DNA of 32,000 nucleotides from Sinorhizobium meliloti (GTDB lineage Bacteria > Pseudomonadota > Alphaproteobacteria > Rhizobiales > Rhizobiaceae): positions 1,560,001 to 1,592,000 of the forward strand of contig NZ_JAGIOS010000002.1 of NCBI RefSeq assembly GCF_017876815.1. Direction: 5' to 3'. Position numbers and translations under genes: made by a program. Position 1 is the first letter of the stretch, and the number at the start of each line of letters is the position of its first letter. Under the pieces are notes generated by a model. The model saw nothing but the letters and a program-made list of their open reading frames with translations, made no database searches and was not told the origin of the DNA. Of this stretch, positions 2,578 to 31,529 are shown piece after piece.

Positions 2578-3522
2578 TTATGTATTTTGCGTAGAAGCCT
2601 GAACCAGGTCAGACCCGCCGAGCTTGCCGTGATTCGGAGGCCGCCTGTCAGAGGCCCATGCCCATGCGTATGCCTCGATGCATTCCCCGTCACCGCAAAG
2701 CACGATGAACCCGCGCTCAGTATGCGCCTGAATCTGCCCTTTCAGGCCGATATATTGCCTGGAATTTTCGACCGGGGTTGCCGCATCAATGCGTATTTTC
2801 TGGCCTTTGTAGAATGTAAAGGCGCCCGGATAGGGATCTCCGACCGCGCGGATCAGCCGCAAGATGGATGCGGCCGGGTCATGCCAATCGATCCGGCCGT
2901 CCTCCGCGGTGCGCTTCGCGCAATAGCTCGCCTCCGCCTCGTTCTGTTCCGTACGCGCCGCGTTTCCGGCTTCGACCTGTGCCGCCGCCTCGACAACCAT
3001 CTCAGCTAGGTTTTCGGTGTGCTTTGTATAAAGACTGCGCGCTGTCTCGTCCGGGGCAACGGGAAATTGCCGCTGTAACAGGATCGGTCCCGAGTCGATG
3101 CCGTCGTCCAGCCAGAAAAGGGTCGAGCCAGTTCGTTCCTCACCCCGGAGGATGGTCCAGGGGATGACGCCGCGGCCCCGCAGACGCGGCAAGGCTGCCG
3201 GATGAAAACCAACGGTGCCCGCGCGCGCGATCTCCCGGAACGCCTGCCGGCAGACCTGCGACCAGCCTATGACGAGTGACAAATCCGGGGCGGCTGCTGC
3301 AACGGCCTCCAGCGTCGCCTGGGAATTTATGTCCGTCGTGTAATGGATCGCGCTTCCGGCCGCCCGGCCTATTTCCCCGAGGCCCACGAAATCGGAATGG
3401 CGCCCGGCTGCTTCGGGCGGCAGCGTTATTACAAGCACCGGAGTGCGCTTTGCCCTTATCAGCGCGTTCAAGGCGATTTTGGAACTCTCGACGGCGCCGA
3501 CGAATACGATGCGCATGGTCAC
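2578..3522 (-). CDS. Fmt/ArnA-like formyltransferase (N- and C-terminal formyl-transferase domains), probably a sugar N-formyltransferase
   Basis: The protein starts MRIVFVGAVESS. The segment GFHPAALPRLRGRGVIPWTILRGEERTGSTLFWLDDGIDSGPIL aligns by eye to E. coli Fmt INVHGSLLPRWRGAAPIQ...GLDTGD. His and Asp of the catalytic triad are present, but the Asn position reads Gly (see findings). A C-terminal Fmt-like domain follows (GDPYPGAFTF). Confidence 0.8.
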   Translation of the reverse strand: MTMRIVFVGAVESSKIALNALIRAKRTPVLVITLPPEAAGRHSDFVGLGEIGRAAGSAIHYTTDINSQATLEAVAAAAPDLSLVIGWSQVCRQAFREIARAGTVGFHPAALPRLRGRGVIPWTILRGEERTGSTLFWLDDGIDSGPILLQRQFPVAPDETARSLYTKHTENLAEMVVEAAAQVEAGNAARTEQNEAEASYCAKRTAEDGRIDWHDPAASILRLIRAVGDPYPGAFTFYKGQKIRIDAATPVENSRQYIGLKGQIQAHTERGFIVLCGDGECIEAYAWAWASDRRPPNHGKLGGSDLVQASTQNT

Positions 3523-3852
3523 ACCATAAAGCTGAATGTGAAATGAGTGACTGCCGGCGAGCCGACGGCATATAAATGCAAGAACAGTATCAGCCTATCG
3601 AACACAACTAAGGTGCGGAAGTCCAGTGCGGGATGAGGAAAACTGCGTGGGATTTCCGGGCCGCATTCCGGTCACGTCGTGTTTTAGGGCCGACCCGACC
3701 TAAAATCATCGTGATCTAACGCCGAAAATACGGCACCACCAGCTAACGTTGCAAATTGATGCGCCTCGGAAATTATGATAGGTCTTGCCTGAGCGGATGA
3801 TGCCGCCAGTCATTAGATTAGATTTTTGAATAGTAACAACGCATATTAAGAC

Positions 3853-3873
3853 GCCACGTCGTGGCAATTTTTT
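3853..3873 (+). terminator. Terminator-like hairpin plus T6 run in a divergent intergenic region
   Basis: GCCACG-T-CGTGGC (3853-3865) is followed by AATTTTTT (T run 3868-3873). The stem is short (5-6 bp) with a tiny loop, so this is a weak call. Confidence 0.25.
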
Positions 3874-3941
3874 AAGAGGGCGACTCCCGCCCTGCAACGG
3901 AACGGTATTTCAAGTTCTGAAAAATATTCGCTTTTGGTTGA

Positions 3942-4814
3942 ATGGATACGGATTCTCACGCCATGACCGTAAGTGCCAAGAAATTTTATTCATTGAATTC
4001 AAACACGATTGACCTGGTATCGGAATCAGCTTTTTTCGCCCGGTTGAAGATGCGCAATGGCACCTTCAAACTGACTCAGCCGTCCCGATTTCGGGAGTTG
4101 GAGGTCGCGTTCCGGCCGTTCATCGCGAAGCGCGCGACATCGCTCCATGACATCCTGGATGTGGGCGTCTCCACCGGATTGACGACGGTGGAACTGTCCA
4201 AGTTCCTCGAAAGTTGCGGCGCCACGGTCCACATTACAGCGACCGATCTCTTTGTAGAGGCCCACATCGTCGAATTTGCTCCCGGGGTCACGGTCTTTTG
4301 CGATCCGGAAGGCTGGCCGCTACAATATGATCTGCGCGGCGTCGCTGTTCGTCCTTGGATCAGAAGGCTGGACTATGTGACGCTCGCATTTGCCCCGCTC
4401 GTGTTGGCGCGTGTCCTGTTGCAACCGCGCCTGCGCGCCCGTGTACGGGCAGGCAAGAGCAGGCAGGTGCAGATGATCACGCGATCCTTACCCGAGAACG
4501 GCAAAATAAACTTCGTCGAAGACGATATTATGAGCCGGTCGCAGCACCTGGCCGGCCGGTTCGATCTCGTGAGAGCCGCAAACATTTTAAATACGAACTA
4601 CTTCTCGCTGGACCAGATCCGGATCGCAATCGAAAACATCCACTCCTATCTCCGCGGCCCGGGCGCCTTGGTCGTGGTGACCCGTACGAACCGCGCGCAG
4701 GAAAACGCCGGAACCTTGTTCGAACTCAAGGAGGATGGTTCGTTCGCCGCGCTGGAGCGCGTCGGGGGCGGATCGGAGATCGAAAAGCTTCTGCTGGATT
4801 TCCGTGCATCGTGA
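3942..4814 (+). CDS. Putative class I SAM-dependent methyltransferase-like protein (function uncertain)
   Basis: ILDVGVSTGLTTVEL resembles SAM motif I (h-D-h-G-x-G-x-G). ITATDL supplies an acidic residue at the end of the second strand. FDLVRAANILNTNYF resembles the CheR/MTase post-motif region. The 5-prime part is visibly more AT-rich than its neighbours. An alternative start lies at 3963. Confidence 0.55.
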   Translation: MDTDSHAMTVSAKKFYSLNSNTIDLVSESAFFARLKMRNGTFKLTQPSRFRELEVAFRPFIAKRATSLHDILDVGVSTGLTTVELSKFLESCGATVHITATDLFVEAHIVEFAPGVTVFCDPEGWPLQYDLRGVAVRPWIRRLDYVTLAFAPLVLARVLLQPRLRARVRAGKSRQVQMITRSLPENGKINFVEDDIMSRSQHLAGRFDLVRAANILNTNYFSLDQIRIAIENIHSYLRGPGALVVVTRTNRAQENAGTLFELKEDGSFAALERVGGGSEIEKLLLDFRAS

Positions 4815-4881
4815 GGCGGAGCCATACACGGCCGGAATGGAACGTCGCGGTCTCCCGAAGCGGAAATCAAACTTCTAGAGA

Positions 4882-5820
4882 ATGGAAGGCTTCATGATGC
4901 CCTCGCAACCAGTTCGCATCGCTTATATCGCAGGTTACGGACGCAGCGGGTCGACCATACTCGACATTGCGCTGGGGCAGCATGCTGCCGTGGTGGGAGC
5001 CGGAGAGATAACGTCGCTCACACGTCACGTCTGGCGTCACAACGAATATTGTGCATGCGGCAATGCAATTCGCGACTGCTCCTTCTGGAGCTCGGTCCGC
5101 AGGGAGTGGTCCGACGGCCAGGATCCCGGGCTGATGGAGGAGTATTGCGCCCTTCAGCAAAAGTTCGAAGGGCTGTCGATGATGACGAGACTGCTCAGCG
5201 GCATGGGTCTCGGAAAACAATTTTCTCTGTATATACTTCATACGAAGCGCCTGTTCAGCGCAATGCAGTCATGTTCGGGCCGGCAGGTGATCGTCGATTC
5301 CTCGAAGCTGCCGGGGAGAGCGATGGCCGTTGCGCAGATCCCCGGGATCGACATGCGCGTCATTCATCTGGTGCGTGACGGGCGCGGTGTAGCCTGGTCG
5401 TTGCTGAAGGGTTACGAGCGCGATGCCAAATCGGGCTTGCAGAAGGAAATCAAGCCGAAATCGGTATTCAGGACAGCCTTGCGCTGGAGCATGGTCAATC
5501 TTGCGGTTGAATATCTCTCGCGAAAATTGGGCTCTGAAAAGGTCATGCGTGTCAGATACGAGGATTTCGCCTCTGACCCTGTTGCCGTTATGCAGCAAAT
5601 CGGGACGTTCCTCGAGCTTGACCTGAGTCAGGTGGGTACATCGCTGCAGAATGGCGAGGCCATGGGGCCGGGACATCAGGTGGCTGGCAATCGGCTGCGC
5701 ATGAACGCATCGATCGCGCTCAACAAGGACGAAACGTGGCGAACACGGATGCCGGCCCGTCAGCAGGTTTCCTTCCAGCGGCTGGGCGGCTGGATGCTCC
5801 GACGCTACGGCTATCTGTGA
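4882..5820 (+). CDS. Sulfotransferase family protein (ST-A)
   Basis: It has a PAPS 5-prime-phosphosulfate loop IAGYGRSGSTIL and a 3-prime-phosphate motif HLVRDGRGVAWS. A Cys cluster, CACGNAIRDCSFW, follows the loop. The likely real start is the ATG at 4894 or 4897, downstream of GGAAGG. Confidence 0.85.
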   Translation: MEGFMMPSQPVRIAYIAGYGRSGSTILDIALGQHAAVVGAGEITSLTRHVWRHNEYCACGNAIRDCSFWSSVRREWSDGQDPGLMEEYCALQQKFEGLSMMTRLLSGMGLGKQFSLYILHTKRLFSAMQSCSGRQVIVDSSKLPGRAMAVAQIPGIDMRVIHLVRDGRGVAWSLLKGYERDAKSGLQKEIKPKSVFRTALRWSMVNLAVEYLSRKLGSEKVMRVRYEDFASDPVAVMQQIGTFLELDLSQVGTSLQNGEAMGPGHQVAGNRLRMNASIALNKDETWRTRMPARQQVSFQRLGGWMLRRYGYL

Positions 5821-5860
5821 AGGTCGGTGTCATATTTCTGCAGGATGGCGGCACAAGAGC

Positions 5861-7309
5861 ATGACGGTAATCTACCACTCGCGTGATGTGAGGGCATTTG
5901 GTTTCACGATAGCGCGTTGCCTGATATTGGCGGGGTTGGTCTGCGGATCATGGGTCGGCCTCTCGCGGCAAGCTCTGGCGCAGGCAGCACTGGCCGAGCC
6001 TCTTTCACCCAAGCTTCCAGACGGCAGACAACGCGCCTTTCCCACGGCCGAAGGCTTCGGCGCCGGCTCTCTTGGAGGCCGGGGGGGTAAGGTGATCTAT
6101 GTCGTCAACACGGACGAGTCAGGGCAGGGCTCCTTGCGTGCGTGCATCGAGGCATCCGGACCGCGCATTTGTATTTTCCGCACGGGCGGCACCATTGTTC
6201 TTCGCGAAAGATCGCTGGTCGTTCGACATCCATTCCTGACGATTGCCGGAGAGACGGCGCCGGGCGGCGGGATTGCCATCCGGAACGGTGAGACGCAAAC
6301 TCGCCCTTCGATCGAAATCGTGACCAATGACGTGATCATCAGGCACATTCGTCTTCGCCCCGGTCCGCATGCCGTGAAGGCTTGTTGTTCCGGAGGCCTC
6401 GGAATGTACTCCAGCTCGGCGAAGGACATCATGCTCGATCATATCTCCGCCAGCTGGGGATCAGACGAGACGATCGATTCGGAAGACGCGAGCAACTTCA
6501 CCTGGCAGTGGGGTATTACGAGCGAACCGCTGCTGCGGGGCGGCCCCGGGAAAGACAAGCGTGCGCGCAACATGTTGTTCACGAAGGGCGGCAACGTCTC
6601 CGTGCATCACTCTCTCTTCGCTTTCGGCCAGTTCAGAAATCCGCTGATAAAGATGAAGATTCCCGGCGCCGTCGCCGATGTCGTGAACAACGTGTTTTTC
6701 TCGCCGAAGTGGCAATATGTCCTAAGCTTCGGCGATGAATGGGCGCGGATCCAGGCTAATGTGGTCGGCAACTACAAGATCGCGGGGGAAAAGCTGCGAA
6801 ACGACCATTTGGTTCATCTCTTCGAAGAAAGCGGACGCGGGCACGCGATCTATTTGAAGGACAATTACGACGAACCATATCGCACTGGCGCCAGCGAGGA
6901 TGACACCCTCGTTCTGGCCGAGAAACAAAGAAGGTTCGTTTCAGTGTCGGCATTCGATGCACCGGCGGTCCGCGCTTCTGCGCCCGAAATTGCTTACGAG
7001 GACGTCCTGGCAGGTGCGGGTGCGACGAAGCCTCGGCGCGACGCCGTCGATCGCCGCATCACCGAGGCGGTCAGAAATCGCAGCGGACGGCTGCTCGTGA
7101 ACGATCCGCAGGACGTCGGCGGTTGGCCGCAACTCGATGCCGGGGTGCCGTACCCGGACAGCGACATGGACGGTATCTCGGATGACTGGGAGGTCGAAAG
7201 CGGCACCGATCCGGCAGATGCCAGCGATGGGCGACAGGACTTGGATGGCGACGGATGGACAAATCTCGAAGCGTTTCTCCATTTCATGGCGGGCGATACC
7301 GCGGATTAA
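5861..7309 (+). CDS. Secreted PL1 pectate-lyase-like polysaccharide lyase with C-terminal thrombospondin-type-3-like calcium-binding repeats
   Basis: The N-terminus looks like a signal peptide (...LAGLVCGSWVGLSRQALAQAALA). Beta-helix lyase motifs are present: AFPTAEGFGAGSLGGRGGKV, TIAGETAPGGG, IIRHIRLRPG, IMLDHISASWGSDETID and RARNMLF...VHHSLFAFGQFRNPLIK...VVNNVF. The tail reads DSDMDGISDDWEVESGTDPADASDGRQDLDGDGWTNLEAFL. Confidence 0.85.
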   Translation: MTVIYHSRDVRAFGFTIARCLILAGLVCGSWVGLSRQALAQAALAEPLSPKLPDGRQRAFPTAEGFGAGSLGGRGGKVIYVVNTDESGQGSLRACIEASGPRICIFRTGGTIVLRERSLVVRHPFLTIAGETAPGGGIAIRNGETQTRPSIEIVTNDVIIRHIRLRPGPHAVKACCSGGLGMYSSSAKDIMLDHISASWGSDETIDSEDASNFTWQWGITSEPLLRGGPGKDKRARNMLFTKGGNVSVHHSLFAFGQFRNPLIKMKIPGAVADVVNNVFFSPKWQYVLSFGDEWARIQANVVGNYKIAGEKLRNDHLVHLFEESGRGHAIYLKDNYDEPYRTGASEDDTLVLAEKQRRFVSVSAFDAPAVRASAPEIAYEDVLAGAGATKPRRDAVDRRITEAVRNRSGRLLVNDPQDVGGWPQLDAGVPYPDSDMDGISDDWEVESGTDPADASDGRQDLDGDGWTNLEAFLHFMAGDTAD

Positions 7310-7416
7310 GTCCCGTTGAGATTTGGATATCCGCCGCGGCTTGCTTGACTTCCTCATCCCTGTGCTCGTCACAGGTATCCGGCCAGACCAAGTCCGTTTG
7401 TCACAGAGATCCAGCA

Positions 7417-7434
7417 GCGCCGCGTCTGCGGCGC
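7417..7434. terminator. GC-rich hairpin between convergent genes (candidate bidirectional terminator)
   Basis: GCGCCGC-GTCT-GCGGCGC forms a perfect 7-bp stem with a tetraloop. On the + strand it is followed by GGGAAGAGTTTCTTTC. It lies 108 nt after the lyase stop and 30 nt after the PCP stop. Confidence 0.35.
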
Positions 7435-7463
7435 GGGAAGAGTTTCTTTCACCCTATGGTGTT

Positions 7464-9452
7464 CTAAGCGACATTCGACGGGCGCGTGATCGAAGGTCTC
7501 GCCGCGGGAGCATGAAGCGTGTTGACGTCCGCGTCCGCCCGTTCGGGGAATGCTCCATTGCCGCGGACGCGATGCCAGCGGCCAGCCGGGATGCGCTTGG
7601 ACGTGATGACGAAGCCGCCATAGTGGTGGCGCCTGTGGATTTCCGGATTGACCTGATTGATCACTGTGCCGATCAGATGCGCATGGTTCATCCGGAGCTG
7701 TGCAGCGGCTTCCAGCAACTGCTCTTCAGTCGTTTTACCCCAATTGGCTATAAGGACCACGCCATCGACAAAGGGTGCCAGCCAAGTCGCATCGCCGGAG
7801 GCGAGCACAGGCGGAGCATGCAGCACGATGAAGTCGTATCCACTTTGCTTGAGGTCCATGATGAGTTCGCAGAGCTTGTCAGAGTCCAGCGATCTGAATG
7901 GCTCCATCATCACATGCGTCGCGTCGATGAACCCGAAACCGGGCAAGGTCGGGATGGACTGCACGATCTCGCCAATGACCGCTTGATTTCTGAGATAGCG
8001 TTCGATTGGTTCCGGTGAACGTTCGATGCTTTTCAGATAGGGAACGTTGTGGCGATTGAAATCGAGATTGACGAAGGCGGTAGGGCGGCCATCCGCTGCT
8101 GCGGCTGTCGCGATGCCCCAAGCTGTCGACGCGTTTGCGATGTTGTGAACGCAGGAGGTGACCATCACGATGCGCCGCAGTTGCTTTGCGTCGGAATAGC
8201 GACCGGCCATATAGACCGCCCGCTCCGCTTCGGCGGACGTGAAATTGCTCCAGTCCGGAATGCACGAGGATCGCTTCGCGCCCGGAGAGGTGAGATGCTT
8301 CGGAATCTTCGGTACATAGCCAAGATTCGGGATCCGCAGCAGTTGCGCCGCGCGCTGTCCGCTACGGACACGGGTGTCGGTCGTTTCCAGCAGGAGCGCG
8401 AGCACGCAGGCCAGCAGCGTGGAGCCGGCGAATGCGGCCGGAATGATAAGTCCGGGCTTAGGAAACGACGGTGAATTGGGGAGTTCCGCTGTCGATACAA
8501 TTCGTGCGCTGGGTTTCAGGGACTCGGCTTCGAGATCGGACAGAATACGCTGAACTTCATCCTCGATCATGCTGCGGATGCCTGCTATCTGCGAATCCGC
8601 ATCGATCATCTGAGGATGATTCTTGCCGTATTTGGCAGCGAGTTCGGCCTTGCTCTGCAGCAACCGGGCCTCTTCGTTCCGCAACGTGATAAGAAGCGGC
8701 TGCGTCATGCTCTGCCGAAGAAAAGCCACTGCACCGCCGGTGTTGAGTGCGCGTTCCTTGTCCGCGACCCGCTCGTCCTGCTTGAATTCGAGCGAAGCTT
8801 CGACATAGAGGGTGGCGATCGTGTTTGCGATTTCCTGGGCGAGTTTCGGATTCTGGTTGGTTACGACAAGCCGCACGGCGAGGCTTTCGCCGGTCCGGCT
8901 CACCTCGAACTGGGACAACAGCGCGGAGATCGCGTGATCCCGTTGCGTCCTCACATCCGGTACGACCCGAACGGTTGTCGAAGAACTGCCAATACCGATG
9001 AATTCCTTGATGTCGTCAACCAGGCCCTGGTCGCCCGACTTGTCCCCGCCCGGCGCATAAGGATTGAAACTGGGATCACCGATGAGGTTCAACCGGTCCA
9101 CGATGCGGCCGGCGAACTTGCGCGACTGCAACACGTCCATCTCGGTTTCCGCCGCCGAACGGTCGCGGTCGATGGATGTCAGAGCTGCATCGGTGGCAAA
9201 TGGCCGGACATCTTTGCGCTCCAGCACCACTTCCGAGCTAGCGGTATAAGTTTTGGGGAGCGAAAAAGAAGCAACTGCAGACAGCAATGTGCAGCCGATG
9301 ATGATTGATGCAAGAAACCAGAACCGCCTCTTGACCACGGCCCAAAGGTCAAAGAGGCCGACCGTAGCCCCGCTCTGCTGAACGGCAAAATCAATGGTTT
9401 CTCGGTGATGAGCGCGGGCAGATAGGCTGCCATCGGGAACGAATGTCGTCAT
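7464..9452 (-). CDS. Polysaccharide co-polymerase (PCP-2a, ExoP/Wzc/GumC-like chain-length determinant) with a degenerate C-terminal BY-kinase-like domain
   Basis: The N-terminal Wzz region has a first TM helix (FWFLASIIIGCTLLSAVASF...YTASSEVVLE). A long periplasmic coiled-coil segment follows, then a second TM helix (GLIIPAAFAGSTLLACVLALLL). The C-terminal P-loop-NTPase-like domain has eroded Walker motifs (see findings). Confidence 0.9.
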   Translation of the reverse strand: MTTFVPDGSLSARAHHRETIDFAVQQSGATVGLFDLWAVVKRRFWFLASIIIGCTLLSAVASFSLPKTYTASSEVVLERKDVRPFATDAALTSIDRDRSAAETEMDVLQSRKFAGRIVDRLNLIGDPSFNPYAPGGDKSGDQGLVDDIKEFIGIGSSSTTVRVVPDVRTQRDHAISALLSQFEVSRTGESLAVRLVVTNQNPKLAQEIANTIATLYVEASLEFKQDERVADKERALNTGGAVAFLRQSMTQPLLITLRNEEARLLQSKAELAAKYGKNHPQMIDADSQIAGIRSMIEDEVQRILSDLEAESLKPSARIVSTAELPNSPSFPKPGLIIPAAFAGSTLLACVLALLLETTDTRVRSGQRAAQLLRIPNLGYVPKIPKHLTSPGAKRSSCIPDWSNFTSAEAERAVYMAGRYSDAKQLRRIVMVTSCVHNIANASTAWGIATAAAADGRPTAFVNLDFNRHNVPYLKSIERSPEPIERYLRNQAVIGEIVQSIPTLPGFGFIDATHVMMEPFRSLDSDKLCELIMDLKQSGYDFIVLHAPPVLASGDATWLAPFVDGVVLIANWGKTTEEQLLEAAAQLRMNHAHLIGTVINQVNPEIHRRHHYGGFVITSKRIPAGRWHRVRGNGAFPERADADVNTLHAPAARPSITRPSNVA

Positions 9453-9540: not shown

Positions 9541-9765
9541 CAGATCTACTTCGGCTGCACAAGCACGTTGTCTTTAACCAGCGCCCTCGGGCATGCCGCG
9601 GCGCAGATGAAGTCGCAGGTACTATGTCAATACGCCCGCATCAAAAACGAAGGGCGTCACGATCTTGACAATACCCCGGATTTCGCGGCACGGCCAGCAA
9701 AAATCGAGACCTGAATGTTCTCGGTTGCAGACGGCGCCCGTTGCTTGGGACGTCGCTTGCACGGT

Positions 9766-11058: not shown

Positions 11059-11093
11059 GATTGCCTCACACCGTTATCTATTCCAAGTTTTGC

Positions 11094-12347: not shown

Positions 12348-12393
12348 AGGAACTGATGAAAGACCCGGTGACCTGGCAAAGCCGGGCCAGAGG

Positions 12394-13320
12394 TCATTTC
12401 TCGGGGCTTCTGTTCCTCAGCCAGTCCGTCAGATCCCTTCCGACGAGGGCGCCGAGTTTTTCCGTTTCAGGCGCGAAGTAATCGGTCATCCGCGCGCGCA
12501 GGTCATGGCTGAGCGGTGCGTATTGAAGCTCGCCGGCAATCAGCGAGCGCAGTTTCTTGAAGCCGGTATTCTGCCGGAATGGAGCAGCCACCGGCTTCAA
12601 GGGACGCAGGAGCCGGCGCAGGGTCGGATTGACGACCGGTTCCGATTTGTCCTTCACCTTTTTTGCAAGCGGCTTCAGCGGAACATCGGCTTCGAGCCCG
12701 AGGAAGCCGCGAACGCGGGCGAGTTGGGCGCGGGCGTCGATCTTCAGGTCCTCGTAGAGGAGGACCAGAATCTGCTCCGCGGGGAAGCGGTCGAGATAAC
12801 CCTGCAACTGCTGATAATAAAGACCGCCGTTCAGGAAGCGCCCGCCGGCCCCTTGACGTGGGTCGAGGTACTGGGCGATGTCGCGCCCGACCTCGGCTCG
12901 GCGATAAAGCATGCAATAGTCGGAATAGGCCCGGTCCACCGGATTGCGAAGCTGCGCTATCAGGCGGGCCTCGGGCAGCTTTTCCTTTATTCTTTCTGCC
13001 GCTTCCGGCACATCCATGTAGGAGTTGGATTTTTCGCCATGCAGCAGCCGGTGCTCCTGGTCCGCGAAATGTTCCAGATACCATTCGTCGCCGCGCTCGT
13101 AATAGCGGCTGAAATAGTGCAGTTCCGGATCGGGCATGAATATGCCCGGGTCCTGCTGCAGCGATTGCTGAAGCCACGTCGTCGCGCTTTTCGTCGCTCC
13201 GATTATCAGAAAATCGATATCCCGCATTTCCATCTTTGGCCCTCTCTCGATCGCCTCACGGACGATTGCACCGAAACGATCGGTTCGCCGCCCCGCAACG
13301 GGCTTTTGTTCCTGGGTCAA
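12394..13320 (-). CDS. Sulfotransferase, Sulfotransfer_1-like (ST-B)
   Basis: It has a 5-prime-PSB loop FLIIGATKSATTWLQQSL and a 3-prime-PB motif IAQLRNPVDRAYSDY. The longest ORF starts at the TTG at 13320. The ATG at 13233 (MEMRDIDFLIIG, preceded by GAGAGAGGG) is the more plausible start. Confidence 0.9.
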   Translation of the reverse strand: MTQEQKPVAGRRTDRFGAIVREAIERGPKMEMRDIDFLIIGATKSATTWLQQSLQQDPGIFMPDPELHYFSRYYERGDEWYLEHFADQEHRLLHGEKSNSYMDVPEAAERIKEKLPEARLIAQLRNPVDRAYSDYCMLYRRAEVGRDIAQYLDPRQGAGGRFLNGGLYYQQLQGYLDRFPAEQILVLLYEDLKIDARAQLARVRGFLGLEADVPLKPLAKKVKDKSEPVVNPTLRRLLRPLKPVAAPFRQNTGFKKLRSLIAGELQYAPLSHDLRARMTDYFAPETEKLGALVGRDLTDWLRNRSPEK

Positions 13321-13522
13321 ACAGTGCTTCCGAAATTCGCTAACGTGAACGAGGTGCCGCTACGGCCGGCCGACGGTATGAATGTACAGGTTGAGGTTCC
13401 GCAGCGAAGCAGCACAATTTGCGCGAAGAATCCGGAAAAGGCGACCTCAGTTTAAGTGTTAATCCTGGCAATAGTTGAAATAAATAAAATCTGGTGGCGA
13501 ATTTCACAGAAAAACAGGCTGG

Positions 13523-13549
13523 AGGCAAGATGCATCTTTGATTTTGCCT
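13523..13549 (-). terminator. Bulged hairpin with a perfect 12-bp palindrome just downstream of the flippase stop (weak terminator/operator candidate)
   Basis: AGGCAA (13523-13528) pairs with TTGCCT (13544-13549). The inner AAGATGCATCTT (13527-13538) is a perfect palindrome. On the - strand a TTTTT run follows about 8 nt later. Confidence 0.25.
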
Positions 13550-13557
13550 TTCAAGTC

Positions 13558-14910
13558 TCACGGCGCAGGGGTTCGGCGGTAGCTCAGCATCATCGTCGAC
13601 AGCCAGATCGACGCCATGACGATGTGGGCGACGTTCGCCCCCATCGCGCCTATGACCGGAATGAGGGCGAATGCGGTGGCATGAAAGCCGATCGCAGCGA
13701 TCGTGACGCTGCGCAGTATTTCGTTTTCGCGTCCCATCGCGAGAAGTGCCGAGCGGATGACGGCGCCGCACAGGGTCATGGTCACTGCGACCGACTGCAC
13801 GACGACGAGGGGACCCGCGGCTGCGAAATCCGGCCCGGCGGCCCAGGTCAGCAGCGGGCCGATCACGAGGTAGAGACCACCGATCAGAAGCAGCCCGAAC
13901 CCCAGAAGCAATCCCTGCATCTGTGCGACCGCGCGGTGGAAGGCGCTAAGCGCCTTGGTAGCCCATGCCCGAGCGAGCTCCGGATAGAGGACCGCCTGAA
14001 CCTGCACGCCGGCCTGCTGCGCGATGCGGCCGATGCGTTTGGCGATGTGATACAATCCGGCGGAGGTCGGATCGGCAAGATAGCCGACGAGGAGCGTGTC
14101 GAGCTCATTGGCGCTTGAACGAATGGTGAGCGAGAGGTTCGCCGAGATCGCGAATTTCCACAGACCCGGAAACCGCTTGGTAATGCCGTGAAGCGGAGCG
14201 CTCATCAGGCCCGAAAGGACGCCCTGCCGGCGCAGTTCGGCCAGCGAAAAAAGCACCAGGACGACGGTGCCGATGATCTGGGCCGACATCCAGATCAGCG
14301 CGAATTCGAACAGGCCTGCGCCGGTGGCGACGCCGATGGCGCAAAGAACGACTCTCAGCACGCTCGTGACCACCTGGCCATAGGCGATCGCCATAAAGCG
14401 CCCGTATAGGCGCAGCACGGCGGTCGGCATGCCGGAGACCTGGAACGGCAGGACCGTGCAGTAGAGGATGGCAAGGTCCGCCCCGTCTCCCGATATGCCA
14501 AGCCAGGGCGCGGCCACCAGAATGAGCAGGACGGCAACCAGCCATCCCACCAGTGCCGCGGAGATATCGAGCAGCAGGCCGAACTTGAGCAAGGCCCGAA
14601 GTTCGGTCGCATCGTCGGCGTTCTCCGCGAGCGAATGCGCGCCGTACTTGATCAGTGGCTGCCACGACTGGAAGCTGACGATCCGCTCGACCGCGCGTGT
14701 GTAGGAGAAGCATAGCGCGAGAATGCCGTAGCCTGCCGGACCGAGTGCCCTGGCTGTGAGCGCAAAGCCGATAAGGCCGATGACCGAGCTCAAAATGTTT
14801 CCCGTGAGCAGGTGCGCAATGCTTTGCAGGCGCTCCAGCAGCGTTTTCTCGCGACTGAGAATTTGCCGCAAGCTGCCGATTTTCTTGAGAAGCTTCTTTC
14901 GGAACGCCAC
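13558..14910 (-). CDS. Wzx-type (MOP superfamily) polysaccharide flippase
   Basis: About 12 hydrophobic segments are visible. The N-terminus AHLLTGNILSSVIGLIGFALTARALGPAGYGILAL is typical of polysaccharide-biosynthesis (Polysacc_synt) transporters. It starts at a GTG. Confidence 0.85.
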   Translation of the reverse strand: MAFRKKLLKKIGSLRQILSREKTLLERLQSIAHLLTGNILSSVIGLIGFALTARALGPAGYGILALCFSYTRAVERIVSFQSWQPLIKYGAHSLAENADDATELRALLKFGLLLDISAALVGWLVAVLLILVAAPWLGISGDGADLAILYCTVLPFQVSGMPTAVLRLYGRFMAIAYGQVVTSVLRVVLCAIGVATGAGLFEFALIWMSAQIIGTVVLVLFSLAELRRQGVLSGLMSAPLHGITKRFPGLWKFAISANLSLTIRSSANELDTLLVGYLADPTSAGLYHIAKRIGRIAQQAGVQVQAVLYPELARAWATKALSAFHRAVAQMQGLLLGFGLLLIGGLYLVIGPLLTWAAGPDFAAAGPLVVVQSVAVTMTLCGAVIRSALLAMGRENEILRSVTIAAIGFHATAFALIPVIGAMGANVAHIVMASIWLSTMMLSYRRTPAP

Positions 14911-14992
14911 TGGAACCGCCTATGTTTTAAGAGATAAGTTAAAAGGTATATGCAAATGCTGTGTGCGGAGCCGGTAGTCGTACGCCGCTCAG

Positions 14993-15246: not shown

Positions 15247-15276
15247 TTGACGTGATAGCGCGTCGAAGAATATAGT
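15247..15276 (+). promoter_or_regulatory. Sigma-70-like promoter candidate for the OPX-PGT-deacetylase-aminotransferase operon
   Basis: The elements are TTGACG (15247-15252), an 18-nt spacer and TATAGT (15271-15276). They sit about 55 nt upstream of the ATG at 15330, which has a GGAGG 7 nt upstream. Confidence 0.3.
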
Positions 15277-15329
15277 CGCCCAATATTTTTTGGTAGAGTT
15301 TTCTTTATTCCTTTTTTGGAGGCTGTGAG

Positions 15330-16580
15330 ATGGGGATTTCACCGGCCGTTTATAGGACCATTTTGCCCCGTTGGAAGCTTGGGGCGTTCCTGCTGATGGT
15401 TCTTTGGACGCTTGCGTTCCCGATGATTACGTCTATGCCCGCTCAGGCCGGTGACTACCGGCTCAACTCGGGAGATGTTCTGACCTTCGACTTCCTTGAC
15501 GATGCCGAGCTGCCGGTTACCGCGACCGTGTCGGGCGCCGGCGTGGCGCAATTTCCACTCATCGGCGGGGTCGAGGTCGTCGGGCTCACGGTGCCGGAAG
15601 CACTGGCGAAGCTCCGTGGCGAGTACCGCAGGCGCGACGTTCTCGTCGATCCGAAAATCTCTCTCGATATTTCGACTTTTCGGCCGATTTTCGTGCTCGG
15701 AGAGGTCAAGACTCCGGGCTCGTTTCCTTTCTACAGCGGGCTGACCGTCGAGCAGGCCATCGGTCTGGCCGGGGGCATGCAGGTCGCTGCAGCGAGCGCA
15801 TCCGACCGGATCGTCGCACGCGCCCGTCTGCGTGCGGAGGCAGAGGCCGCCAACGCCGAGATCATCCACGAGGCCATCTATGCGGCGAGGCTCGTGGCTC
15901 AGTTGAAATCCAGCGACAAGATTGACCTCGCCGATGTGCCTGAGGTGGCACGCGACTATGTGACCGGCGTGCCCCTCGATGGCGTGATAGAGCTCGAAGA
16001 AAAGATTCTGAAGGCGGACCTCGCCGCAAACAAGTCGCAAGCGCAGATCCTGGCCGAGGGCATAACCCAGTCCGAAGGCGGCATCGAGATACTGAACCAA
16101 CTCATCCTGCAGCAAAAGGACGTGGTCCAGAACAGCAAGGAAGATGTGGAGCGTATCGCTACCTTGCGCAAGCGCGGGCTGAACACCGAGAGCGATCTTT
16201 CCCGCGCGGAGAACAGTGCTTCGGCCGAACAGGCTCAGCTTCTCGAGACCTTCGCCACACTTGCGCGATCGCGCCAGGAGTTGAGCGGGTTGAAGCTGCA
16301 GCTGGCAAAGCTTGCAGCCGACCGTGAGAAGGACATACTGACGCAGCTTCAAGCGCGTGAGATCGCTATCAAAAAGCTGATTTCTGGAAAGCACTCCGCC
16401 GAAGAGCAAATACTCCTCATGGCGGCGGTGGCCGAAGACGAGTCCAAGAAAAATCAGATTTCATATACCTATGAGATTCGGCGGAATCCGGTCGGCGGTA
16501 CGCCGGCCAGCATAAAGGCGTCCACCCTGACTGAACTCGTTCCGGGCGACGTGCTCATGGTGTCAATTGCCGGAATGTAA
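15330..16580 (+). CDS. Outer-membrane/periplasmic polysaccharide export protein (OPX; Wza/ExoF/GumB-like)
   Basis: It has a signal peptide (LLMVLWTLAFPMITSMPAQA). A Poly_export domain follows (YRLNSGDVLTFDF...VSGAGVAQFPLIGGVEVVGLTVPEALAKL...FVLGEVKTPGSFPF...LTVEQAIGLAGG), then a long coiled-coil region as in ExoF-type proteins. Confidence 0.9.
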   Translation: MGISPAVYRTILPRWKLGAFLLMVLWTLAFPMITSMPAQAGDYRLNSGDVLTFDFLDDAELPVTATVSGAGVAQFPLIGGVEVVGLTVPEALAKLRGEYRRRDVLVDPKISLDISTFRPIFVLGEVKTPGSFPFYSGLTVEQAIGLAGGMQVAAASASDRIVARARLRAEAEAANAEIIHEAIYAARLVAQLKSSDKIDLADVPEVARDYVTGVPLDGVIELEEKILKADLAANKSQAQILAEGITQSEGGIEILNQLILQQKDVVQNSKEDVERIATLRKRGLNTESDLSRAENSASAEQAQLLETFATLARSRQELSGLKLQLAKLAADREKDILTQLQAREIAIKKLISGKHSAEEQILLMAAVAEDESKKNQISYTYEIRRNPVGGTPASIKASTLTELVPGDVLMVSIAGM

Positions 16581-16642
16581 GACTTAAATTCAGAGATTTT
16601 GAAAACACGCTCTATGCGCTTCTGCGCCAAGGGAATATTGAG

Positions 16643-17323
16643 TTGAAAACCTATAGAGAACCTGCGGCCGTCAGCTTCGGCTTGCCTGCCTCCTTGGGAT
16701 TTTACCGTCTCAAGCGTTTCCTCGATTGCCTGTTTGCCGGAACCGTTTTCGTCCTGTGCCTGCCGCTGATGGTGGTCACGGCAGTGGTTGTTTGGGCTAC
16801 CCTCGGCTTGCCGCTGTTCTTCACCCAGGCGCGCGCCGGTGCGGGGATGCGCGTCTTTACCGTTGCCAAATTCCGCACGATGACGGATGCGCGGGCACCT
16901 GACGGCACGCTTTTGCCGGATGCGTTGCGGCAGACCGCCGCGACCGCTCTGTTGCGGCGGCTGCGCTTCGATGAACTGCCGCAACTCATTGCGGTGCTTT
17001 CCGGCGACATGTCGATGGTAGGTCCGCGCCCGCTTCCCTTGGCGACCGTCGCCGGCTTCGGCGAACTAGGCCGCATGCGCTGCCGCATCGCCCCGGGAAT
17101 GACCGGCTGGGCACAGGTAAACGGCAATACGCGGCTTTCGGACGAGGAGAAGATCGCTCTCGACCTCTGGTATGTCGCACATACCAGCCTCTGGCTCGAT
17201 GCGCGGATCCTCCTGTTGACCCTGAAAACGCTGGTCACCGGTGAGCGGGTTCATGCGCGGCATCTGCAAGAGGCCAGGGAGTTTCTTTCGCGCCGCCTTG
17301 GCGCAGAGACGCCGAAGGCGTGA
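16643..17323 (+). CDS. Small monotopic phosphoglycosyl transferase (Bac_transf; ExoY/PglC/WbaP-C-terminal type), initiating enzyme
   Basis: The sequence reads LKRFLDCLFAGTVFVLCLPLMVV...PLFFTQARAG...FTVAKFRTM...DELPQLIAVLSGDMSMVGPRPLP...PGMTGWAQVNG. It starts at a TTG. Confidence 0.9.
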   Translation: MKTYREPAAVSFGLPASLGFYRLKRFLDCLFAGTVFVLCLPLMVVTAVVVWATLGLPLFFTQARAGAGMRVFTVAKFRTMTDARAPDGTLLPDALRQTAATALLRRLRFDELPQLIAVLSGDMSMVGPRPLPLATVAGFGELGRMRCRIAPGMTGWAQVNGNTRLSDEEKIALDLWYVAHTSLWLDARILLLTLKTLVTGERVHARHLQEAREFLSRRLGAETPKA

Positions 17324-17375
17324 TGCGGCGGATGAGCGCGCGCCAAGGCGGCAATATTTTTGATCAGGAGGTTTC

Positions 17376-18062
17376 ATGGGTGGCGGGCAGATATCTTTCG
17401 GGCGCACTCTGGTCGTGGCGCCGCATCCCGATGACGAGGTGCTCGGCGCAGGCGGGACGATCGCGCGGCTCGCGGCCGAAGGTGAAGAGGTCTTCGTCGC
17501 GGTCGTGACGGAGGGAAAGCCTCCCGCCTTCGATCCGGAGGCAACTGCCCGGATACAGGCAGAAGCGAGGCAAGCGCACCGCGCCTTGGGCGTCACGGAA
17601 ACCATATGGCTCCGGCTGCCGGCAGCACAGCTTGCGGAAACGGCGCATGCGACCGTCAATGCCGCCTTGCTCGAACTCGTTCACCGGCTGTCGCCGCAAA
17701 CCGTCTTATTGCCCTTCGTGGGCGACATGCACATGGACCATCAGTTGACCTTCACGTCAGCGCTGGTCGCCTGCCGGCCGCACCAGGCGGAATTCCCAAA
17801 GCTCGTTCTCGCCTACGAGACCCTGTCAGAGACAAATTGGAATGCGCCCTATCTGTCTCCGGCGTTCGTGCCGAACGTCTTCGTCGATATCAGCGAGCAT
17901 CTCGAGGCAAAGCTCAAGGCGATGGAGTTGTTTGCTTCCCAGGTGCGCCAGCCGCCGCATGAGCGCTCGATCGCGACCCTCAGGGCGCTGGCGACCTTGC
18001 GCGGGGCGACCGTGATGCGGCAAGCGGCGGAAGCTTTCGTATTGGTCCGGCACGTCGTCTAG
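17376..18062 (+). CDS. PIG-L/LmbE-family N-acetylhexosamine de-N-acetylase
   Basis: It has the signature LVVAPHPDDEVLGAGGTIARL and a downstream HMDHQ metal-ligand region. An AGGAGG lies 4 nt upstream of the ATG. Confidence 0.9.
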   Translation: MGGGQISFGRTLVVAPHPDDEVLGAGGTIARLAAEGEEVFVAVVTEGKPPAFDPEATARIQAEARQAHRALGVTETIWLRLPAAQLAETAHATVNAALLELVHRLSPQTVLLPFVGDMHMDHQLTFTSALVACRPHQAEFPKLVLAYETLSETNWNAPYLSPAFVPNVFVDISEHLEAKLKAMELFASQVRQPPHERSIATLRALATLRGATVMRQAAEAFVLVRHVV

Positions 18063-18130
18063 GTTGAGGGACGGCGTCGCACGGAATTACTCACTATTGC
18101 CACAAGACCCAATTCAAATCGGAGGGACAG

Positions 18131-19321
18131 ATGGGACGCTGGCCGGTTTACGACGAGGAGCAGATCGAGGATGTCGTGTCGGTCCTCAGATCTGGCGAGG
18201 TGAATGCCTGGACGGGACCGCACGTCCGCAACTTCGAGGCTGCCTATGAGCGCTTTCTCGGCGTAAAATATGCGGTGGCTCTCGCCAACGGAACGGTGGC
18301 GCTGGACCTCGCGCTCTTCGCGCTCGGACTTGAGCCGGGCGATGAGGTCATCGTGACGCCGCGCAGTTTCATTGCCTCGGCCTCAACGGTGCCGATGGCG
18401 GGTGGAGTTGCGGTTTTCGCCGACGTCGATCGCGACAGCCAAAACATCACCGCGGAAACCATAAGGGCGAAGCTGACGCCGAGGACCAAGGGCGTCATCG
18501 TCGTGCATCTGGCCGGCTGGCCCTGCGACATGCCCGCCATAATGGCGCTTGCCCGCGAAAAGGGGCTGTGGGTGATAGAGGATTGCGCTCAGGCGCACGG
18601 CGCCGAAATCGACGGCCGGCCGGTCGGCAGTTTCGGTGACATAGCGGCTTTTTCCTTCTGTCAGGACAAGATCATCACCACTGGAGGCGAGGGCGGGCTC
18701 GTGGCGATGAACGACGACGAGCTCTGGAAAAAGGCCTGGAGCCGCAAGGACCATGGCAAGTCGTATGACGCCGTCTACAACAAAGAGCACCCTCCGGGTT
18801 TCAGGTGGCTGCATGAGTCCATCGGCACCAACTGGCGCATGATGTCGATCCAGGCGGTCATGGGATCGCGTCAGTTGCAGCGCCTGACGGAATGGCGCAG
18901 CATAAGAGCGCACAATGCGGCTATTATCGCCAGAGCGGCCGAGGAGATCGAGGCTTTGCGCACGCCCTTGCCGCCCCGTGGGATTCAGCACGCGTGGTAC
19001 AGGTTCTATACGTTTCTTCGGCCGGAGCGCCTGCGGCCCGACTGGAGCCGGGACCGGATCATTGCCGAAATCAACGGCGCCGGCGTCGCATGCTTCAGCG
19101 GCAGTTGCTCGGAAATCTACTTGGAAAAAGCCTTTACGGACATCGGTATGGCCCCGGCCCAGAGATTGCCCGACGCGCGCGAGCTCGGCGAGACGAGCCT
19201 GGCCTTCCTGGTCGACCCCGCGCTCGATACGGCGGCAATGGAGAAGGCGGCGCATGTCCTGCGGGAGGTGTTTGCAAGGGCCAGCATCGGCAGGCCAGCC
19301 CTCGATGCCGCGCGGCGTTAG
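18131..19321 (+). CDS. DegT/DnrJ/EryC1/StrS-family PLP-dependent nucleotide-sugar aminotransferase
   Basis: Family motifs are present: FE..YE.FLGVKYAVALANGTVALDLAL, VIVTPRSFIASA, VIEDCAQAHGA and AFSFCQDKIITTGGEGG, which contains the PLP lysine. Confidence 0.95.
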   Translation: MGRWPVYDEEQIEDVVSVLRSGEVNAWTGPHVRNFEAAYERFLGVKYAVALANGTVALDLALFALGLEPGDEVIVTPRSFIASASTVPMAGGVAVFADVDRDSQNITAETIRAKLTPRTKGVIVVHLAGWPCDMPAIMALAREKGLWVIEDCAQAHGAEIDGRPVGSFGDIAAFSFCQDKIITTGGEGGLVAMNDDELWKKAWSRKDHGKSYDAVYNKEHPPGFRWLHESIGTNWRMMSIQAVMGSRQLQRLTEWRSIRAHNAAIIARAAEEIEALRTPLPPRGIQHAWYRFYTFLRPERLRPDWSRDRIIAEINGAGVACFSGSCSEIYLEKAFTDIGMAPAQRLPDARELGETSLAFLVDPALDTAAMEKAAHVLREVFARASIGRPALDAARR

Positions 19322-19324
19322 AGC

Positions 19325-19340
19325 AGTTCCATCCGGAACT
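19325..19340. terminator. Short hairpin in the 37-bp gap between convergent genes
   Basis: AGTTCC-ATCC-GGAACT forms a 6-bp stem. There is no U tract, so the call is weak. Confidence 0.2.
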
Positions 19341-19358
19341 AGGCGCGCAGGTGCGGGT

Positions 19359-20201
19359 TCAGACGTTCAATCCCGTGTGGCCGACGAGACGTTTGGCGGA
19401 GACCGTCAGGTCGGCCGCGCACAAACCCTCGACCTCTGCGACCTGCGCCTCGTCCAGATAGTCCCTGAACCCACCTGCCTTACCACGGCGCATGCGCAGG
19501 CTTTCCACGTCGTTCCGATCGTAGTCATGAGCCGGAATGCCTTCTACCCGCTCCCTGTCCTGCATGGCCTCGAACCGGCCGGCCTCGACCGCTGCCCGGA
19601 GCGCCGTTCGATCGACCGGACAGCGGAGAAATTCCAGCACCGCCTCGGTTTGTCCTTCCGTGTCGGCGGAGAGGCCCTCGTAGCTCAGAACGAAGTGCGC
19701 GCGGTTGGACAGGCCGGCTGCCCAGCGATTGAGATAACCGATCATCTTGGGCATACCCTGGTCACGGTCCTTTATGAACTCCGTAAGGGTGCCGGCGAAA
19801 CGGTGTTTGTGCCGGGTCGCATGGAAATAGGCCGACACGATCACGTCGCGCGGGTCTCTTACCATCATGATGACCGGACGCCTGAGGAACAGGCTGGCGC
19901 GATAGTCCAGGTGGCTGACGAGGATCGTCGGAATTGCGTCTTGCGCCTCGCGGAAGCGGTAACCCGGCATTCCGCGCACCGGGTCGAGATCGAAATTCGG
20001 TACGATCGAGAACATGTTATGAAGGTCTATCGGTTCCGGCACGCGCGCGATCGTCGCGAGATAGTGGGAAAGAACGTACCGAAACCAGGTGCGGCCCGAT
20101 TTTGGATAGGAGATCAGGAAACTGTCGGCTTGAGCGGCATAAGTGGTAAGCCGTACCCGCTTCTCCACCCGACGCCATGCCCGCCTGAGAATACTTGCCA
20201 T
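19359..20201 (-). CDS. Sulfotransferase, cytosolic-ST-like Sulfotransfer_1 (ST-C)
   Basis: It has a 5-prime-PSB loop LISYPKSGRTWFRYVL and a 3-prime-PB motif MMVRDPRDVIVSAYFH. It appears monocistronic, with a long AT-rich upstream region. Confidence 0.9.
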   Translation of the reverse strand: MASILRRAWRRVEKRVRLTTYAAQADSFLISYPKSGRTWFRYVLSHYLATIARVPEPIDLHNMFSIVPNFDLDPVRGMPGYRFREAQDAIPTILVSHLDYRASLFLRRPVIMMVRDPRDVIVSAYFHATRHKHRFAGTLTEFIKDRDQGMPKMIGYLNRWAAGLSNRAHFVLSYEGLSADTEGQTEAVLEFLRCPVDRTALRAAVEAGRFEAMQDRERVEGIPAHDYDRNDVESLRMRRGKAGGFRDYLDEAQVAEVEGLCAADLTVSAKRLVGHTGLNV

Positions 20202-31521: not shown

Positions 31522-31529
31522 GGGGACCG

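Follow-up and report, generated by a model that had tools for sequence, protein, structure and literature searches.

A 32,000-nucleotide stretch of Sinorhizobium meliloti DNA (contig NZ_JAGIOS010000002.1, positions 1,560,001 to 1,592,000; hereafter the window) contains at 2578-20201 the central SMb21235-SMb21250 part of a known ~30-kb gene cluster on the megaplasmid pSymB, which is headed by nodP2-nodQ2-cysQ. We read this cluster as a complete Wzx/Wzy-dependent assembly line, accompanied by sugar-tailoring enzymes and three sulfotransferases (ST-A, ST-B and ST-C), which would make a sulfated polymer with 3'-phosphoadenosine 5'-phosphosulfate (PAPS) supplied by its own NodP2Q2 enzymes. The gene content makes a function in sulfated-polysaccharide synthesis a reasonable reading, and we give the scheme as a whole a probability of roughly 65%. 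Sulfated polysaccharides are uncommon among bacteria. Both the locus and the presence of three sulfotransferases in it have been published before, and no report of the isolated polymer was found in the literature searched. What is new here is a comparative result: loci with the same backbone are found across Hyphomicrobiales and carry between zero and three sulfotransferase genes.

Three Sulfotransferase Genes of Different Subfamilies

Every candidate open reading frame (ORF) in the window was tested against Pfam with gathering cut-offs, because this high-GC sequence (54-65%) gives a list of ORFs that includes many spurious ones. The Sulfotransfer_3-type ST-A (4882-5820, + strand) matched PF13469 with 56.0 bits and PF00685 with 30 bits, the heparan-sulfate-sulfotransferase-like ST-B (12394-13233, − strand) matched the same two families with 67.3 and 60.6 bits, and ST-C (19359-20201, − strand), which resembles cytosolic sulfotransferases (SULTs), matched them with 38.7 and 85.7 bits. 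The cut-off is 27 bits for PF13469, and those cited for the superfamily are 27 and 22; all three proteins are above the gathering thresholds and are hence members of the PAPS-dependent sulfotransferase superfamily. A third family that the initial annotation had proposed to search, PF03567, was matched in Pfam by none of them. The two PAPS-binding signatures that had been read by eye in each protein were also located, namely the 5'-phosphosulfate-binding (PSB) loops GYGRSGST (4933-4956), GATKSATTW (13174-13200) and YPKSGRTW (20085-20108) of ST-A, ST-B and ST-C, and their 3'-phosphate motifs LVRDGRGVAWS (5368-5400), LRNPVDRAYS (12922-12951) and VRDPRDVIVS (19833-19862). The PSB loop of ST-A (GRSGST) has Arg in place of Lys, which is the RXG form of the loop reported for NodH and other members of PF13469 (PMC11625862).

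The gene limits first assigned to ST-A and ST-C were retained, whereas those of ST-B needed correction at the 5' end. This gene most likely starts at ATG 13233 (279 residues) and not at TTG 13320, which is ~29 codons too long, because the alignments with its orthologues begin only at residues 22-26, that ATG is preceded by a GAGAGAGGG stretch resembling a Shine-Dalgarno sequence, and a gene of 840 nt is annotated in the record of strain ml28. The opposite-strand ORFs that overlap ST-B (12283-13455, +) and ST-C (18915-20402, +) had no Pfam match and were rejected as genes.

No pairwise BLASTP alignment with E<4 was obtained among the three proteins, which agrees with the mutual divergence originally noted and rules out a recent duplication. 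In the PDB, the only sequence relatives of ST-A were CurM/OLS-type sulfotransferases, and this similarity (E 1e-5) is too weak for assigning its catalytic base. ST-B matched the bacterial structure 3rnl (E 1e-25), heparan-sulfate 3-O-sulfotransferase 3 (3-OST-3; E 1.5e-16) and also N-sulfotransferases (NSTs), and ST-C matched SULT2B1b (E 1.4e-12). By these similarities the three proteins are assigned to three subfamilies, which are CurM-like, heparan-sulfate 3-OST/NST-like and cytosolic-SULT-like. Alignment of ST-B with 3-OST-3 matched the loop Lys (GATKSATT), a Glu-x-His element (PELHYF versus AEPHFF) and RNPVDRAYS, and alignment of ST-C with SULT2B1b matched YPKSGRTW, SHL with the catalytic His, RDPRDVIVS and the RKG-type segment RRGKAGGFRDY. 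The ratio of nonsynonymous to synonymous substitution rates (dN/dS) between S. meliloti and S. medicae was ~0.11 (0.10-0.11) for each of the three genes, equal to that of the neighbouring assembly genes; all three evolve under purifying selection. The enzymes look functional, judged by their Pfam scores, the cofactor and catalytic motifs aligned for ST-B and ST-C, and this selection. A hydrophobicity scan found no transmembrane or other hydrophobic segment in ST-A, ST-B or ST-C, and the proteins should therefore be cytoplasmic.

Identity of the Locus and Supply of PAPS

The sequence of 2578-20201 matches pSymB of S. meliloti USDA1157 with 100% identity, and at least 80% of this interval is spanned by 61 of the 87 matching plasmid records, all but one of which (86/87) are from Sinorhizobium. 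Outside a 0.93-kb insertion sequence (IS), DNA identity amounts to 98.5% with pSymB of strain Rm1021 (window 2362-32000) and to 99.8% with strain RCAM1115. The upstream sequence published for SMb21240 was found as an exact match at 9591-9611 with its tabulated start-codon distance kept, and that of exoF3 (SMb21245) has its exact match at 15253-15273, where the tabulated distance of 77 nt to the start codon is likewise kept (PMC12542648). These exact sequences at the tabulated distances identify the polysaccharide co-polymerase (PCP) gene as SMb21240 and the gene for outer-membrane polysaccharide export (OPX) as that of ExoF3 (SMb21245). The gene order further matches the product names given for SMb21242 (glycosyltransferase), SMb21243 (sulfotransferase), SMb21247 (deacetylase) and SMb21248 (aminotransferase) (PMC5498481). 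ST-B was equated with SMb21243 by gene order together with product names, and ST-A and ST-C with SMb21237 and SMb21249 by gene order alone. Near-identical DNA, shared gene order and the published landmark sequences thus place the interval in the nodP2-smb21248/49 cluster.

Zou et al. (2017) reported a pSymB cluster of ca. 30 kb that extends from nodP2 to smb21248, named its three sulfotransferases SMb21237, SMb21243 and SMb21249, listed nodP2Q2, SMb21240, SMb21242, SMb21243, SMb21247 and SMb21248 as activated by cAMP/Clr, and suggested that a sulfated polysaccharide of the cell surface is a candidate for the signal by which secondary infection is controlled (PMC5498481). The same cluster is mentioned in a 2025 study of PhaR (PMC12542648), and its transcripts and proteins were detected and found to be regulated (PMC5498481, PMC12542648). 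The novelty considered in the initial annotation was thereby lost: the synteny with pSymB makes the locus real but not novel.

No PAPS-synthesis gene is present within the 32-kb window, as was stated at the outset, but the deduction then drawn, that the donor must be supplied in trans, does not hold for the locus. In RCAM1115 and ml28, which are 99.8-100% identical to the window, cysD(nodP2)-nodQ2-cysQ head the same cluster, with the end of nodQ2 ~8.5 kb before window position 1 and ~12.4 kb before ST-A. Following cysQ in these two strains are genes for a PHP phosphatase, an ATP-grasp protein, an NAD epimerase, an RTX calcium-binding protein and two glycosyltransferases, and then the CapD/PglF-like dehydratase gene, whose 5' half is window 1-1259 (−). 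A nodQ-cysQ pair also lies 3-5 kb from the methyltransferase-like/ST-A gene pair in Neorhizobium sp. T6_25 and Rhizobiales AFS054504. On this comparison, the window without PAPS genes is an effect of its edge and not a property of the locus.

Assembly Machinery and Predicted Sugar Chemistry

The assembly and export set originally recognized (a small phosphoglycosyl transferase (PGT), Wzx, Wzy, PCP, OPX and GT4 glycosyltransferases) was recovered above the Pfam thresholds, with topologies consistent with a Wzx/Wzy pathway. The PGT, which is of the small monotopic, PglC-like type and would initiate the repeat unit (16643-17323, +; SMb21246 by gene order), gave 169.7 bits with Bac_transf, and its best PDB match was PglC, the N,N'-diacetylbacillosaminyl-1-phosphate transferase (137 bits versus 76 bits for WbaP). 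The Wzx flippase gene wzx1 (13558-14910, −; SMb21244 by gene order) and a gene for a Wzy-type polymerase of the Wzy_C/O-antigen-ligase family (9766-11058, −; SMb21241 by gene order) matched PF01943 with 59.9 bits and PF04932 with 43 bits, and each product has 11 hydrophobic segments. The PCP (7464-9452, −) is of the Wzz type (Pfam Wzz, 38.7 bits) with a degenerate C-terminal kinase-like domain, and the OPX protein (15330-16580, +) carries Poly_export (51.1 bits) and SLBB domains. Two GT4 genes, SMb21242 (11094-12347, −) and SMb21250 (20557-21885, +), matched PF00534 with 92.7 and 153.7 bits, the latter having a later start at ~20701 in the annotation of ml28 by the Prokaryotic Genome Annotation Pipeline (PGAP). 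A further GT4 gene identified by Pfam (24285-25382, +) lies in the distal part of the conserved locus and is directly followed by a gene with a polysaccharide-deacetylase-like profile match (25379-26149, +); this order is kept through S. medicae and S. fredii.

SMb21240 is called a tyrosine kinase in the literature, and its C-terminal domain looks pseudokinase-like. Its NCBIfam matches (eps_transp_fam and tyrosine-kinase models) were all sub-threshold, and assignment as a PCP-2a with an active bacterial tyrosine (BY) kinase was ruled out on the Walker A motif and the tyrosine cluster. The region of the Wzx gene alone (window 13535-14963) recurs as a 93-95% identical copy on other Sinorhizobium replicons, which are a 1.19-Mb plasmid of S. 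meliloti and 277-kb and 1.34-Mb plasmids of S. medicae.

For the sugar-tailoring genes, no product of the locus reached an NCBIfam equivalog cut-off, and exact functions are hence not transferable by name. The window begins within a gene for a membrane-anchored CapD/PglF-type NDP-sugar 4,6-dehydratase/epimerase (1-1259, −; probably SMb21232; Polysacc_synt_2, 96.9 bits, plus CoA_binding_3), of which the 5' part of 419 codons is present and the full 699 residues are annotated in RCAM1115 and ml28. The formyltransferase-like gene of the initial annotation (2578-3522, −; SMb21235 by gene order) was borne out by ArnA/Fmt-like N- and C-terminal domains (PF00551, 76.6 bits; PF02911, 63.1 bits), and its best PDB matches were the ArnA formyltransferase domain (E 5e-31), methionyl-tRNA formyltransferase and sugar N-formyltransferases, so that it probably encodes a sugar N-formyltransferase. 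A DegT/PglE-type sugar aminotransferase, SMb21248 (18131-19321, +; PF01041, 302.6 bits), aligned with PDB entry 7l7x at 450 bits (E 4e-134), and its best NCBIfam models (PseC, LegC and ArnB) were all sub-threshold. That entry is deposited under a family name only, which means that a solved structure exists for a near-orthologue. SMb21247 (17376-18062, +; PF02585, 87 bits) is a PIG-L family de-N-acetylase, described as a GlcNAc-type deacetylase and Clr target (PMC5498481). The combination of PglC-like PGT, PglF/CapD-like dehydratase, DegT aminotransferase and formyltransferase suggests that the primer sugar is of the 2-acetamido-4-amino-2,4,6-trideoxyhexose type, N-formylated at C4.

A secreted pectate-lyase-like protein with a TSP3 calcium-binding repeat is encoded at 5861-7309 (+). 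It scored 133 bits with NCBIfam PelZ, which is sub-threshold, and its PDB matches include the pectate lyase 9buj (E 1e-18) and the Vi-antigen lyase VexL. Its N-terminus consists of a hydrophobic segment followed by Ala-rich QALAQAA, a signal peptide as judged by eye, and the protein is a candidate depolymerase of the polymer. At 28387-29820 (−; PGAP places the start later) is a gene for a nucleotide-sugar dehydrogenase of the UDP-glucose/GDP-mannose family, with three UDPG_MGDP_dh domains (151.8, 110 and 78.4 bits). Based on this dehydrogenase and the pectate-lyase/VexL-like protein, the chain probably contains a uronic acid. Coordinate transfer from ml28 places a "polysaccharide lyase" gene at 31524-32000 (+) and beyond the window end, which would be the second lyase of the locus.

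The methyltransferase-like gene (3942-4814, +; SMb21236 by gene order) was less clear than initially proposed. Its methyltransferase Pfam score of 21 bits is below the 27-bit cut-off, and PGAP names it "ATP-binding protein". It has 259 homologues, mainly in Hyphomicrobiales, some of which are named S-adenosylmethionine (SAM)-dependent methyltransferase, and an LDVGVSTG motif is present and conserved. An AlphaFold model from the single sequence (pLDDT 36) was not used; a model from a 35-sequence alignment (pLDDT 90.7) was compared with the PDB by Foldseek, which gave 183 matches with E<=1e-3, and all 50 among those listed were SAM methyltransferases or such domains, at TM-scores of only 0.2-0.48. 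The product is thus predicted to be a divergent protein of the class I SAM-methyltransferase fold.

Distribution of the Locus and Its Sulfotransferases

Rm1021, GR4 and S. medicae have kept all three sulfotransferase genes and all of their neighbours, except that GR4 lacks the methyltransferase-like gene; Rm1021 has the same gene order, and its proteins are 93-100% identical to those of the window. In comparison with S. medicae, dN/dS ranged from 0.05 to 0.14 across all 17 genes tested, and with S. fredii from 0.06 to 0.2. S. meliloti and S. medicae carry ST-A, ST-B and ST-C in the locus. The rearranged locus of S. fredii CCBAU 45436 carries ST-A and ST-B and lacks ST-C, and the homologous loci of Neorhizobium and Rhizobiales AFS054504 likewise carry ST-A and ST-B. 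Prosthecomicrobium sp. N25 has only an ST-B orthologue (56% identity), adjoining the methyltransferase-like gene. Kaistia sp. 32K has no sulfotransferase gene within 10 kb of the homologous locus, and its backbone is kept, with the methyltransferase-like, lyase-like, Wzy, PCP, OPX, PGT, formyltransferase and PIG-L genes. In Roseibium, a 50%-identical ST-B orthologue is flanked by glycosyltransferase genes in another Wzx/Wzy/PCP/OPX locus. A genome scan with ST-A found no locus in Mesorhizobium.

The same backbone locus is therefore present across Hyphomicrobiales with 0 to 3 sulfotransferases, and sulfation looks like an accessory decoration added stepwise onto it. The three subfamilies, together with the occurrence of 0, 1, 2 or 3 of the genes on the same backbone, support the view in the initial annotation that the enzymes are independently recruited specificities and not products of duplication. 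On that view, sulfation would occur at up to three positions. These loci offer natural unsulfated and partly sulfated controls for assigning the position modified by each enzyme.

In GR4, the methyltransferase-like gene is absent (locus L005, 14945-15303), and the ST-A, lyase-like, PCP, Wzy, GT4 and OPX genes belong to a divergent allele with 86-90% protein identity between flanking genes of 96-100%, which suggests an allelic replacement of this central block.

Proposed Pathway and Alternatives

The repeat unit would be built on undecaprenyl phosphate at the cytoplasmic face, probably starting with an N-formylated 4-amino-4,6-dideoxy-N-acetylhexosamine (HexNAc) and probably including a uronic acid. 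PAPS is cytoplasmic, and the three sulfotransferases are soluble, without membrane or export signal; because of this, they would act on the lipid-linked repeat unit, or on a nucleotide sugar, ahead of flipping by Wzx. PAPS would be made by the cluster's own NodP2Q2, and the by-product 3'-phosphoadenosine 5'-phosphate (PAP) would be removed by CysQ. Polymerization and export by Wzy, PCP and OPX would follow, and the secreted pectate-lyase-like protein would trim the polymer. Expression would be conditional, as the published activation by cAMP/Clr and the link to PhaR suggest (PMC5498481, PMC12542648).

Several observations weigh against this scheme. No paper with the polymer, its sulfate content or a mutant phenotype was found in the literature searched, and we infer the position of nodP2Q2 upstream in the window's own strain from near-identical strains. 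The gene at 9766-11058 could encode a ligase, as the Wzy_C family also holds O-antigen ligases; the PCP at 7464-9452 has no Walker A motif ([AG]xxxxGK[ST]) and one Tyr in its last 60 residues; and ST-C resembles SULTs of small molecules and ST-A the CurM-type enzymes that act on acyl intermediates. In the window strain, moreover, the formyltransferase gene is separated from the dehydratase gene by an IS5-family element (1432-2364, +; transposase 1499-2344, DDE_Tnp_1, 135 bits, plus DUF4096), which ends up ~170 bp upstream of where the dehydratase starts. It is bounded by duplicated TTA (1429-1431 and 2365-2367), has terminal inverted repeats matching at 13/17 positions, and is absent from RCAM1115, USDA1157 and Rm1021; its absence from the USDA1157 record shows that the window does not come from that strain. 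The element stands outside the pathway and may be polar on the dehydratase gene. In Rm1021, an IS3-family element (rve plus HTH_Tnp_1) interrupts the first ~ten dehydratase codons at window-equivalent 1228-1235. A frameshift near codons 48-99 disrupts the lyase-like gene in Rm1021 and ml28 (locus L003, 22152-23598; locus L017, 17282-18726); the gene is unbroken in S. medicae, GR4, RCAM1115 and the window. Given the insertions, the frameshift and the degenerate PCP domain, the cluster may in some strains be weakly expressed or have lost part of its function; a general decay is contradicted by the strong purifying selection.

It is quite improbable, in our estimate, that the cluster is cryptic or decaying as a whole, with intact ORFs and no polymer made in these strains. 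Such a state would accommodate the independent IS insertions at the formyltransferase/dehydratase junction, the broken lyase-like genes, the methyltransferase-like gene missing in GR4 and the degenerate kinase-like domain of the PCP. Since the pSymB sequence became available, reportedly in 2001, the literature searchable has moreover brought no report of a product. A decaying cluster is, however, difficult to reconcile with dN/dS of 0.05-0.14 for 17 genes against S. medicae and 0.06-0.2 against S. fredii, with a locus spanning at least 80% of the interval in 61 of 87 plasmid records, and with the regulated transcripts and proteins detected (PMC5498481, PMC12542648). The assumption that at least one sulfotransferase is a passenger acting on a non-carbohydrate acceptor (a small metabolite, lipid or peptide) is likewise very doubtful. 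ST-C and ST-A would be the likeliest cases, since the best structural relatives of ST-C are cytosolic steroid/phenol SULTs, the only PDB sequence relatives of ST-A are polyketide "activating" sulfotransferases, and ST-C is missing from the otherwise homologous locus of S. fredii. The acceptor is nevertheless not determined by the sequence family, and both genes sit between polysaccharide genes and are conserved there under purifying selection.

A further explanation, which we consider unlikely, is that some or all of the three enzymes modify the known surface glycans, lipopolysaccharide (LPS) or K-antigen, and provide a "missing" LPS sulfotransferase activity. Cronan and Keating are said to have found in 2004 that the LPS of lpsS mutants is still sulfated in vivo almost as in the wild type, a result implying that there are further sulfotransferases. 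The inclusion of O-antigen ligases in the Wzy_C family fits this explanation. Sulfated LPS and K-antigen polysaccharide (KPS) of S. meliloti are cited in PMC5498481, and LpsS belongs to the Stf0 family (PMC12445080), a different family from the three enzymes, so that a non-homologous back-up is conceivable. Against it, the sulfotransferase genes are distributed among those of a full PGT/Wzx/Wzy/PCP/OPX set, with which they are co-conserved across genera, and Clr co-induces at least SMb21243 with glycosyltransferase, PCP and tailoring genes of the cluster (PMC5498481). We also considered a highly speculative extension, to which very little probability is given, in which the polymer would be of a kind new to rhizobia, acidic, N-formylated and carrying up to three sulfates. 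PIG-L and ST-B would form a two-enzyme counterpart of the animal N-deacetylase/N-sulfotransferase and produce an N-sulfated hexosamine, and the polymer would act as a heparin-like, cAMP/Clr-dependent signal limiting secondary infection of Medicago roots.

S. meliloti is a model symbiont, and the polymer, if isolated, could reveal which surface signal under cAMP/Clr control restricts secondary infection of roots, as has been proposed. The residual sulfation of LPS that lpsS mutants reportedly show could be accounted for as well. Both questions have already been posed in the literature for exactly this locus, and the present finding is one of confirmation and context.

Comparison with Known Systems

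The nodP2-smb21248 cluster of Rm1021 (PMC5498481, PMC12542648) is the same locus, with only strain-level differences: Rm1021 has the IS3-family element at the dehydratase 5' end and a frameshifted lyase-like gene, whereas the window has the IS5-family element and an intact lyase-like gene. Two validated clusters come nearest to it as whole systems and serve as precedents for the proposed scheme. The xss cluster for synechan of Synechocystis PCC 6803 is similar in being plasmid-borne and Wzx/Wzy-dependent, with several glycosyltransferases and more than one sulfotransferase of distinct subfamilies (PMC8205485). It differs in having two sulfotransferases, no OPX gene in the cluster, no PAPS genes listed and another sugar-tailoring set. 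Its product was shown to be sulfated (PMC8205485). Orthology with xss is not indicated: a plasmid of another Synechocystis strain encodes a sulfotransferase that matched ST-B with 32% identity, in an alignment spanning 63% of the ST-B length. The cluster of Vibrio sp. KMM 8419, which makes a sulfated capsular polysaccharide (CPS), is alike in that a second copy of the PAPS genes (cysDNC) and three sulfotransferase genes lie inside a polysaccharide cluster, an arrangement that its authors regard as a hallmark of sulfated-polysaccharide synthesis (PMC11641403). This cluster uses an ABC-transporter (Kps) pathway in an unrelated organism, with different sugars and a solved structure (PMC11641403).

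Among rhizobial enzymes, NodH, LpsS and KpsS sulfate glycoconjugates with PAPS supplied by NodPQ, as is proposed for the three proteins. LpsS is set apart at the family level, being of the Stf0 family (PMC12445080), whereas the three matched only PF13469 and PF00685 in Pfam (E<=0.01). Paralogy with NodH (nodH/hsnD, pSymA) was rejected, since BLASTP gave E values of 0.001 (PSB loop only), 0.45 and 0.14 against ST-A, ST-B and ST-C; tblastn with the sulfotransferases gave no pSymA (NodH) match at E<=1 among the matches listed. With the eukaryotic heparan-sulfate 3-O- and N-sulfotransferases (ST-B) and cytosolic SULTs (ST-C), the fold family is shared and the cofactor and catalytic motifs align, but identity is low and ST-B and ST-C are bacterial soluble proteins. 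The early steps resemble those of the Campylobacter Pgl system in the PglF-like dehydratase, the PglE-type DegT aminotransferase and the PglC-like small PGT. The locus differs in having a formyltransferase in the place of the PglD acetyltransferase and an additional PIG-L deacetylase, and it would lead to a Wzy-polymerised exported polymer, whereas Pgl leads to protein glycosylation.

Flanking Genes and Other Observations

The distal end of the cluster, which is reported to be activated by cAMP/Clr, holds a gene for a class III adenylate/guanylate cyclase (30172-31521, +), with a DUF3095 gene (27186-28397) before it. This cyclase gene is distinct from cyaF2, the chromosomal Clr target SMc03985. 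In Prosthecomicrobium sp. N25, the homologous locus is bordered by a gene for a Crp-type regulator (cNMP_binding plus HTH_Crp_2; locus L019, 20520-20843). Near the other end of the window, the IS5-family element of this strain and the IS3-family element of Rm1021 represent two independent insertions within ~200 bp. A gene for an MscS-family mechanosensitive channel (21991-24207, +) is located between two glycosyltransferase genes of the cluster, a position that it also has in both S. medicae and S. fredii. Where the lyase-like and PCP genes converge, the gap between them contains a 57-nt stretch (7398-7454) with a ~93% match on a 3.5-Mb replicon of Sinorhizobium sp. C101, the record of which matches the queried interval in 36 separate places. 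This stretch is also found on other Sinorhizobium plasmids and may be a dispersed intergenic repeat.

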